DNA from: a virus
Taxonomy: Duplodnaviria; Heunggongvirae; Uroviricota; Caudoviricetes
IMG/VR virus record: IMGVR_UViG_2740892231_000002
Coordinates: 1 to 10,286 of that record
Reading direction: 5' to 3' (one strand)
DNA length: 10,286 bases
This document shows, one piece after another, positions 2,447 to 4,033 of this stretch; positions within the stretch are counted from its first letter, which is position 1; every line of letters begins with the position of its first letter. The notes below the pieces were generated by a model. The model ran no database searches and was not told the origin of the DNA. It saw nothing but the letters and a program-made list of their open reading frames with translations. A program made the position numbers and the translations under genes.

Positions 2447-4033
2447 ATGGCTAATGCCTGGCTCAGATTGTGGCATGACATGCCAAATGACCCCAAGTGG
2501 CGAACGATTGCCAGGGTATCAGGACAGCCAATCGCAACAGTGATGGCAGTGTATATCCACCTTCTGGTGAGCGCGTCACGAAATGTCACGACATGTCACG
2601 GCGTGTCACTACGTGGTCACATTGATGTCACGACGGAAGATTTAGCAAGTGCGCTTGATGTGACGGAAGACGTAATTGATTCAATTTTGCATGCAATGCA
2701 GGGGCGGGTTTTGGATGGTGACCTTATTTCCGGATGGGAAAAACGTCAGGTGCTGAAAGAGGACAATGGTAACGTTTCGCAAACGGCAAAATCCCCGGCA
2801 GAGCGCAAGAGAGCGCAGCGGGAGCGCGAAAAGCTGCGGAAATATGATGCTGATTGTCACGATGAGTCACGACGTGTCACGCATCTGTCACGACAAGTCA
2901 CGACAGATAAAGATNNNNNNNNNNTAAGAGAGCGCAGCGGGAGCGGGAAAAGCTGCGGAAACATAATGCTGATTGTCACGATGAGTCACGACGTGTCACG
3001 CATCTGTCACGACAAGTCACGACAGATAAAGATACAGATACAGAATTAAACCCCACACATAACGCGCGCATGCGCGAGAGTGCTCCAACCGGTGAGTCGA
3101 ATGGTGCGTCGTTGCAGACAGCCGAACCTGAATACCTGGACGGCCTGAGCGAACCGATCGGGAAATTTTCGATGACCACTGTCTGGCAGCCGTCGCCGGA
3201 TTTTCGACAACGGGCAGCAGTGTGGGGTATGGCTCTGCCTGAGCCNNNNNNNNNNGAGAGTATTCCGACCAGTGAGTCGAATGGTGCGCCGTTGCAGACA
3301 GCCGAACCTGAATACCTGGACGGCCTGAGCGAACCCATCGGGAAATTTTCGATGACTACTGTCTGGCAGCCGTCGCCGGATTTTCGACAACGGGCAGCAG
3401 TGTGGGGTATGGCTCTGCCTGAGCCGGAATTTACACCTGCTGAGCTTGCCGCATTCCGGGATTACTGGATGGCGGAGGGGAAGGTTTTCACGCAGGTTCA
3501 GTGGGAGCAGAAATTTGCCCGCCACGTGCAGCACGTCAGGGCACAGGTAAAACCAGTCAGCAAGGGGGGAAGCCATGCAGCATCAGGTGGCACGGCATCA
3601 CGGGCAATTCAGGAAATCCGGGCAGCACGCGAACAGTGGGAACGAGACAACGGATTTATCAGCAACGGAAACGGCCTGGAAGCTGTGGGAGCTTATGGGG
3701 GAGGTGTATTCGANNNNNNNNNNAGAGGGGAAGGTTTTCACGCAGGTTCAGTGGGAGCAGAAATTTGCCCGTCACGTGCAGCACGTCTGGGCACAGGTAA
3801 AACCAGTCAGCAAGGGGGTAAGCCATGCAGCATCAGGTGGCACGGCATCACGGGCAGTTCAGGAAATCCGGGCAGCACGCGAACAGTGGGAACGTGACAA
3901 CGGATTTATCAGCAACGGAAACGGCCTGGAAGCTGTGGGAGCTTATGGGGGAGGTGTATTCGAACCGCTGGACTCAGAAGAACGGGGCCGCACCTTCGAA
4001 GCTCTGGATTGCCCAGATTGGTGCGATGACTGA
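2447..4033 (+). CDS. Phage replication initiator / replisome organiser (O-like) with DnaT-like C-terminal domain; frame broken in this assembly by three N-gaps
   Basis: ATG at 2447 preceded by GAGG. The N-terminal region (MANAWLRLWHDMPNDPKWRTIAR...) carries GTCAC iteron arrays inside the coding sequence. After removing the duplicated segments, one frame reads through to the stop at 4031-4033 (about 345 aa), including VWQPSPDFRQRAAVWGMALPEPEFTPAELAAFRDYWMAEGKVFTQVQWEQKFARHVQH, which resembles the DnaT C-terminal domain. Confidence 0.6.
2575..2632. repeat. Iteron array A: six GTCAC(G) motifs at about 10-bp spacing (candidate origin iterons)
   Basis: GTCAC motifs begin at about 2575, 2585, 2595, 2605, 2616 and 2627, read directly from the sequence. 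Confidence 0.6.
2856..2901. repeat. Iteron array B: five (A/T)GTCAC motifs at about 10-bp spacing, followed by an A/T-rich stretch
   Basis: Motifs at about 2856, 2866, 2876, 2887 and 2897, followed by GATAAAGATACAGATACAGAATTAAA. The array is repeated at 2975-3020 inside the duplicated segment after the first N-gap. Confidence 0.55.
2915..2924. other. Assembly gap (10 N) flanked by a near-identical direct duplication (2807-2914 versus 2926-3033)
   Basis: Run of 10 N; the 108 bp before and after are the same sequence with 3 mismatches (period 119 bp). The duplication shifts the reading frame. Confidence 0.8.
3246..3255. other. Assembly gap (10 N) flanked by a near-identical direct duplication (3076-3245 versus 3256-3425)
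   Basis: Run of 10 N; 170-bp flanks about 95% identical (period 180 bp). The frame is preserved, so the translation shows a duplicated peptide block. Confidence 0.8.
3714..3723. other. Assembly gap (10 N) flanked by a near-identical direct duplication (3474-3713 versus 3724-3963)
   Basis: Run of 10 N; 240-bp flanks about 98% identical (period 250 bp). The duplication shifts the frame, producing the chimeric ORFs 3070..3897 and 3575..4033 in the track. Confidence 0.8.

Follow-up and report, generated by a model that had tools for sequence, protein, structure and literature searches.

When a heterozygous sample is assembled, the two alleles of one locus can be written in series around a gap, and the products of such haplotype false duplications are inflated sequence lengths and broken genes. 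The locus that we describe here has the same traits, with the difference that a bacterial genome is haploid and that the most likely source of the apparent 'heterozygosity' is either a set of paralogous prophages or a mixed culture. Among short-read assemblers, Velvet is one that works with an odd word size (k), writes gaps shorter than 10 bp as 10 N, and gives node descriptors without their first k-1 bases. The locus resembles Velvet-type scaffolds with a fixed minimum gap in its 10-N runs, in the redundancy that abuts each gap, in a tail of k-1 = 68 nt that implies an odd k, in nodes that follow a gap without their first k-1 bases, and in its origin as an isolate draft submitted through ENA; it differs from them in that the assembler is undocumented for this record and that the 10-N runs were possibly imposed at submission.

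The gene that carries the pattern has its closest described counterparts in phage lambda. As in the lambda O/P module, an initiator is followed by a helicase loader of the P family whose start overlaps the initiator's stop, but the initiator here has, by Pfam, a DnaT-type domain and not the lambda O fold. Likewise, the lambda origin consists of short direct-repeat arrays in helical phase, located in the initiator gene beside an A+T-richer stretch, and the candidate origin here is arranged in the same manner, with 7-nt (T/A)GTCACG cores in two arrays in place of lambda's four 19-bp iterons.

The window (i.e., the whole stretch of 10,286 nt that was analysed) is the entire contig CCPU01000128.1 of assembly GCA_000752815.1, which was deposited through ENA and is the draft of an E. 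coli-like isolate, not a metagenome. A literature search on the accession CCPU01 found no paper on this assembly, its sole match (JACCPU) being unrelated. The window contains exactly three N runs, each of 10 nt (2915-2924, 3246-3255 and 3714-3723), and a repeat finder returned, around these runs, three direct repeats of two copies each: 2807-2914 and 2926-3033 (108 nt with 3 mismatches, 97% identity), 3076-3245 and 3256-3425 (170 nt with 7 mismatches, 96%), and 3475-3713 and 3725-3963 (239 nt with 5 mismatches, 98%). At all three junctions, the first copy abuts the N run on its left and the second copy abuts it on its right, with no spacer. The original prediction had described three 10-nt N runs between near-identical copies of 108, 170 and 240 bp, and both the layout observed and the identities of 96-98% agree with it; only the lengths need a small correction that takes the first differing base into the overlap. 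In the first and third pairs, the base right after the Ns (T at 2925, A at 3724) mismatches its counterpart (C at 2806, G at 3474), and because 2925 and 3724 add one aligned mismatch each, the true overlaps are 109, 170 and 240 nt.

Finished E. coli genomes have no such duplications. A megablast search with positions 2300-4300 of the window (2,001 nt) against 5,426 complete E. coli genomes returned 570 records with a query cover of 80% or more; in the 20 best of these 570, which reach a cover of 98%, the 2,001 nt align in four pieces to 1,452 or 1,446 nt. The shortfall is therefore 549 nt, which is exactly 119+180+250, or 555 nt. When the N runs and the right-hand copies were deleted from the window, the collapsed sequence (positions 1944-9737) aligned gap-free to NZ_CP027586.1 (E. 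coli 2012EL-2448, hereafter L001), with 99.86% identity over 7,794 nt. Each of the three N runs is an artificial gap, the first with no missing sequence, and across all of them complete genomes follow the order of the collapsed text without interruption.

Searches of other collections gave the same picture. Written as continuous text, one hypothetical tandem junction would run from ...GATAAAGAT directly into AAGAGAGCGC..., and patterns for the three tandem junctions, with 0-12 intervening bases allowed, had 0 matches each in 2.9 million viral contigs. The exact junction text including the N run also had 0 matches among the viral contigs, 89 of which match the normal continuation of junction 3. 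At about 85 related loci, on viral or isolate contigs, the initiator gene is always single copy. The finished genomes, these single-copy loci and the restored protein (see below) uphold the earlier assertion that the copies are not biological tandem repeats. We regard it as close to certain that the three duplications are absent from the DNA of the organism, and that the pattern is an assembly artefact that is real only in the text of the record. Four elements of this reading are shown by the data: the geometry of the junctions, finished genomes that lack the duplications, a known protein that reappears on collapsing, and the natural occurrence of both alleles.

The gene underneath is an ordinary lambdoid O-type prophage replication initiator with a DnaT-like domain. 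As written in the record, it occupies 2447..4033 on the plus strand (1,587 nt); its real length is 1,038 nt (345 aa) in the allele of the left copies (allele A) and 1,032 nt in that of the right copies (allele B). That removing the duplicates would restore one frame from 2447 to 4033 had been foreseen, and the collapsed sequence does have this frame, of 1,038 nt; it encodes 345 aa that match, with 100% identity, WP_042969574.1, which bears the annotation 'DnaT-like ssDNA-binding domain-containing protein'. The protein matches the Pfam DnaT domain PF17948 at residues 201-267 (E=2.9e-17; 62.6 bits against a cut-off of 25) and the replication initiation family phrog_1408 (E=9e-119). It is followed by the gene for replication protein P, a helicase loader of 153 aa (4026..4487, plus strand; Phage_lambda_P PF06992, E=1.9e-15), whose start overlaps the initiator stop by 8 nt, and the same order of initiator and P occurs in L001 and in two further related loci (L002 and L003).

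In the record as deposited, these genes are disfigured. The four open reading frames into which the initiator had been said to be split (2441..3049, 3070..3897, 3501..3800 and 3575..4033) all exist, and the deposited gene calls include a 200-aa initiator fragment (2447-3049) and a 275-aa initiator fragment (3070-3897), both of which are products of the artefact. A third call, a P protein of 197 aa (3894-4487), has a false N-terminal extension, its start being placed 132 nt too far upstream, within the duplicated end of the initiator. Such products have already entered large protein collections; the 200-aa artefact frame was looked up and is stored as a protein in a public one.

Other records of this gene have peculiarities of their own. 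The family phrog_15931 (482 positions, 'unknown function') is matched by the initiator at profile positions 1-347 and by the P protein at 288-482; its members seem to be O-P products that are fused or frameshifted, so that the family may be an outcome of annotation artefacts in its own right. Two contigs of IMG isolate genome 2534682159, an unrelated draft, overlap within this gene by 415 nt at 100% identity (L027 at 3722-4136, L073 at 5824-6238), a further case at this locus of overlapping contigs that were left unmerged. On a further IMG/VR contig (L074), positions 2275-3041 align only to gene positions 1-163 and 409-1038, with 26 nt of the contig shared between the two alignments.

Within the initiator gene lie two iteron-like arrays on the plus strand, which, judged by their sequence, look like a putative phage origin with candidate iterons inside the initiator gene, as in lambda. 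Array 1 (2574..2632) has six GTCAC cores at 2575-2627, and array 2 (2855..2902) has five (T/A)GTCACG cores at 2856-2897, both with a spacing of 10-11 nt. The arrays are separated by 229 nt, a stretch of 65% A+T lies 3' of array 2, and all exact plus-strand occurrences of TGTCACG in the 10-kb window fall inside these arrays. An apparent third array at 2974-3021 is false, because the first artefact duplicates array 2.

The surroundings are those of a lambdoid prophage whose early region is ordinary, with a repressor region, YdaS/YdaT, the initiator and replication protein P, followed downstream of P by DUF1627, Ead/Ea22 paralogues, DUF551, ParE/ParD, DUF968 and RusA. The immunity/repressor segment at 162-1943 (ParE/PaaA2-like genes at 265-744, an HTH_3 repressor at 713-1234 and YdaS at 1668-1949) does not match the E. 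coli 2012EL-2448 prophage, which is otherwise 99.86% identical, and the boundary near 1944 is a typical lambdoid mosaic boundary. The region holds three toxin-antitoxin-like pairs, namely ParE/PaaA2 (265-744, minus strand), YdaS/YdaT (1668-2378, plus strand) and ParE/ParD (7852-8414, minus strand). It also holds genuine repeats: the pairs 5873-5947 / 6433-6507 and 6061-6124 / 6651-6714 are diverged direct repeats of 72% identity, spaced by 560-590 nt, that belong to the adjacent Ead/Ea22-like paralogues 5885-6448 and 6445-7122 and provide, in the same window, an example of the appearance of a tandem duplication that is real and old.

The two versions of the duplicated text correspond to two natural alleles. 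Alleles A and B differ by 17 substitutions and one 6-nt indel, in three clusters (which we refer to as bubbles 1, 2 and 3, one for each junction), and their proteins differ at 8 amino-acid positions and by a 2-codon indel. Allele A equals L001 at all sites. For allele B, the complete genome of STEC2017-197 (L003) has all right-copy variants of bubbles 1 and 2, including all seven B alleles of bubble 2, together with a 6-nt deletion; and when allele B was rebuilt with this deletion (641 nt), it aligned gap-free at 99.5% to several complete STEC genomes. The B version of bubble 3 is matched at 100% over 383 nt, including the three residual differences, by two independent IMG/VR contigs (L005 and L006). 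No single reference with all B alleles of the three bubbles was found, bubbles 1 and 2 being those of L003 and bubble 3 that of L005 and L006. An exact search of genome contigs with a 31-mer of allele B gave 0 matches, because that collection has one genome per species. Since every right-copy variant is present in independent genomes, the read set must have held two real alleles.

The boundaries of the copies obey a simple rule. At all three junctions, the left copy stops 68 nt past the last mismatch (from 2846 to 2914, from 3177 to 3245, and from 3645 to 3713), and when junctions with these overlap lengths and these numbers of mismatches were simulated, three equal tails arose in only about 4 in 10,000 trials (P ~4e-4). 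The right copy opens on the first differing base at junctions 1 and 3. Junction 2 is an apparent exception, in that the G at 3256 equals the G at 3076, and an indel is therefore predicted directly upstream of 3076 in the second allele. Precisely such a change is present in L003, which has the 6-nt deletion in the CGCGCGCATGCGCG stretch, its rightmost placement (3070-3075) adjoining 3076. With junction 2 counted by way of this deletion, all three junctions have a right copy that opens on the first difference. The earlier description of the right-hand copy at junction 2 was thus sound in its pattern and missed the 6 nt hidden in the second allele.

Stated as branches, all on the plus strand, bubble 1 consists of an allele A branch at 2806..2914, which ends 68 nt past 2846 and carries the alleles of L001 and L002, and a redundant allele B copy at 2925..3033, which starts with T against C at 2806 and has four B alleles, all found in L003. 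In bubble 2, the allele A branch (3070..3245) ends 68 nt past 3177 and includes the six bases ATGCGC at 3070-3075 that are missing from allele B, and the redundant B copy (3256..3425) starts just 3' of the deletion. In bubble 3, the allele A branch (3474..3713) ends 68 nt past 3645 with the alleles of L001, and the redundant B copy (3724..3963) starts with A against G at 3474. Differences within a bubble are spaced by fewer than 69 nt, and 111 and 117 nt separate one bubble from the next, both of which a graph with k=69 requires.

These boundaries suggest how the artefact would have arisen. A read set with the two natural alleles would yield, in a node-centric de Bruijn graph with a word size of 69, three unmerged bubbles, and the two branches of each would then have been written in series, i.e., the upstream sequence with A, a minimum gap of 10 N, and B with the downstream sequence. 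Because a branch comprises every word in which a difference occurs, it would end k-1 = 68 nt past the last difference; and with 111 and 117 nt between the groups of differences, one expects at k=69 three distinct bubbles that are joined by shared nodes. The duplicated span would accordingly open on the first difference and close 68 (k-1) bases beyond the last, and the text of a node after a gap, lacking its first k-1 bases, would start at the first differing base. The order of the scaffold would be the upstream sequence and A1, 10 N, B1 with shared sequence and A2, 10 N, B2 with shared sequence and A3, 10 N, and B3 with the downstream sequence. We have very little doubt about the essence of this account, namely that two alleles gave three unresolved bubbles, that their branches were placed in series, and that the locus is really single copy. 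The original explanation by unmerged overlapping contig ends was right in naming an assembly artefact, and is better replaced by two bubble branches in series. The proposed series-bubble mechanism at k=69, the hidden 6-nt indel and the natural origin of both alleles are what the present analysis adds.

As to the program, the evidence points to a word size of 69 and to a Velvet-like assembler. A graph of the SPAdes type, whose default word sizes are 21, 33, 55 and 77, was considered and rejected: at default k its tails would be 55 or 77 nt, not 68. Velvet is the best-fitting assembler, and we infer this single program from the fit of the record to its output. Our literature search for a citable source of the 10-N rule that we ascribe to Velvet gave only indirect support, in that the Velvet-based Oases sets gaps to 10 N for archive (NCBI) compliance (PMC3530497). 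A widely used Velvet pipeline for drafts of this kind takes k at 66-90% of the read length (PMC5320598).

Could the duplications nevertheless be present in the organism? If the gene did carry real tandem duplications, with lengths of about 109, 170 and 240 bp and each with a short unsequenced gap at its junction, their copies might well be non-identical, and at 96-98% identity they do resemble older duplications; moreover, iteron regions in replication origins are able to expand. Against this, the gap would have to fall precisely on the junction in three cases of three, which has a chance of about 2e-7 if gaps are random within three real tandem duplications, and no duplication exists among the listed complete genomes or the approximately 85 contigs, nor any tandem junction in the 2.9 million viral contigs. 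The periods of 109, 170 and 240 nt leave remainders of 1, 2 and 0 modulo 3 (with the Ns, 119, 180 and 250 nt leave 2, 0 and 1), such that with or without Ns the reading frame of an essential phage gene would shift at two of the three sites. A tail of 68 nt would be without biological reason, and the supposedly 'diverged' copy consists of alleles known as single copy elsewhere. We therefore give genuine duplication almost no credence. No more belongs to the idea that the right copies are low-quality contig ends, with sequencing errors as mismatches and with true overlaps left unmerged. At junction 2, four of the seven mismatches do fall in the first 16 nt of the right contig, as errors at a contig end would; but all 17 B substitutions and the inferred deletion occur in independent genomes as linked haplotypes, which random errors would not recreate, and sequencing error was rejected as the source of the mismatches.

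Given two alleles whose branches were written in series, the remaining question is where the second allele came from. The original suggestion of two similar prophages is borne out to the extent that the reads held two similar natural sequences, and leaves the choice between a second prophage and a mixed culture. The former is the most likely source, since related copies of the gene coexist in genomes and drafts break within it. In E. coli genomes, several related copies of the initiator are often present together (up to 6 places per genome, and 1,583 places across 929 records), two copies from a single IMG isolate (L033 and L034) are 96.4% identical over 978 nt, and among the approximately 85 related loci draft contigs frequently end inside the initiator gene. 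Each of these points tells against the same artefact having drawn its second allele from a mixed or contaminated culture, with two strains or two variants of the prophage locus, as does the length of the contig, which at only 10.3 kb fits a repeat collapsed between points of divergence. On the other side, a scaffolder places both branches of a bubble in one scaffold when read pairs tie each of them to the same flanks, a situation that one polymorphic locus in a mixed culture would explain rather naturally, and there are no further bubbles in the flanks across 10 kb; we consider a mixed culture a real though minor possibility, to be given about one chance in a handful. It is improbable, by comparison, that the alleles are a standing polymorphism within one culture, produced by ongoing gene conversion among prophages in the central linker of the initiator; we retain this idea because both alleles are mosaics of variants from different strains.

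The significance of the artefact is one of data hygiene only, and the duplications represent no biological feature. In other drafts, the same artefact can be screened for as a 10-N run with a right copy that starts from the first variant and a left copy that extends to k-1 past the last, a rule that also recovers two alleles out of one scaffold. In the deposited record, three false open reading frames (200, 275 and 197 aa) replace two real genes. If the improbable reading by gene conversion were true, the artefact would mark a live recombination hot spot. For the phage group, the false third iteron array at the duplicated copy of array 2 could mislead descriptions of its origin of replication.
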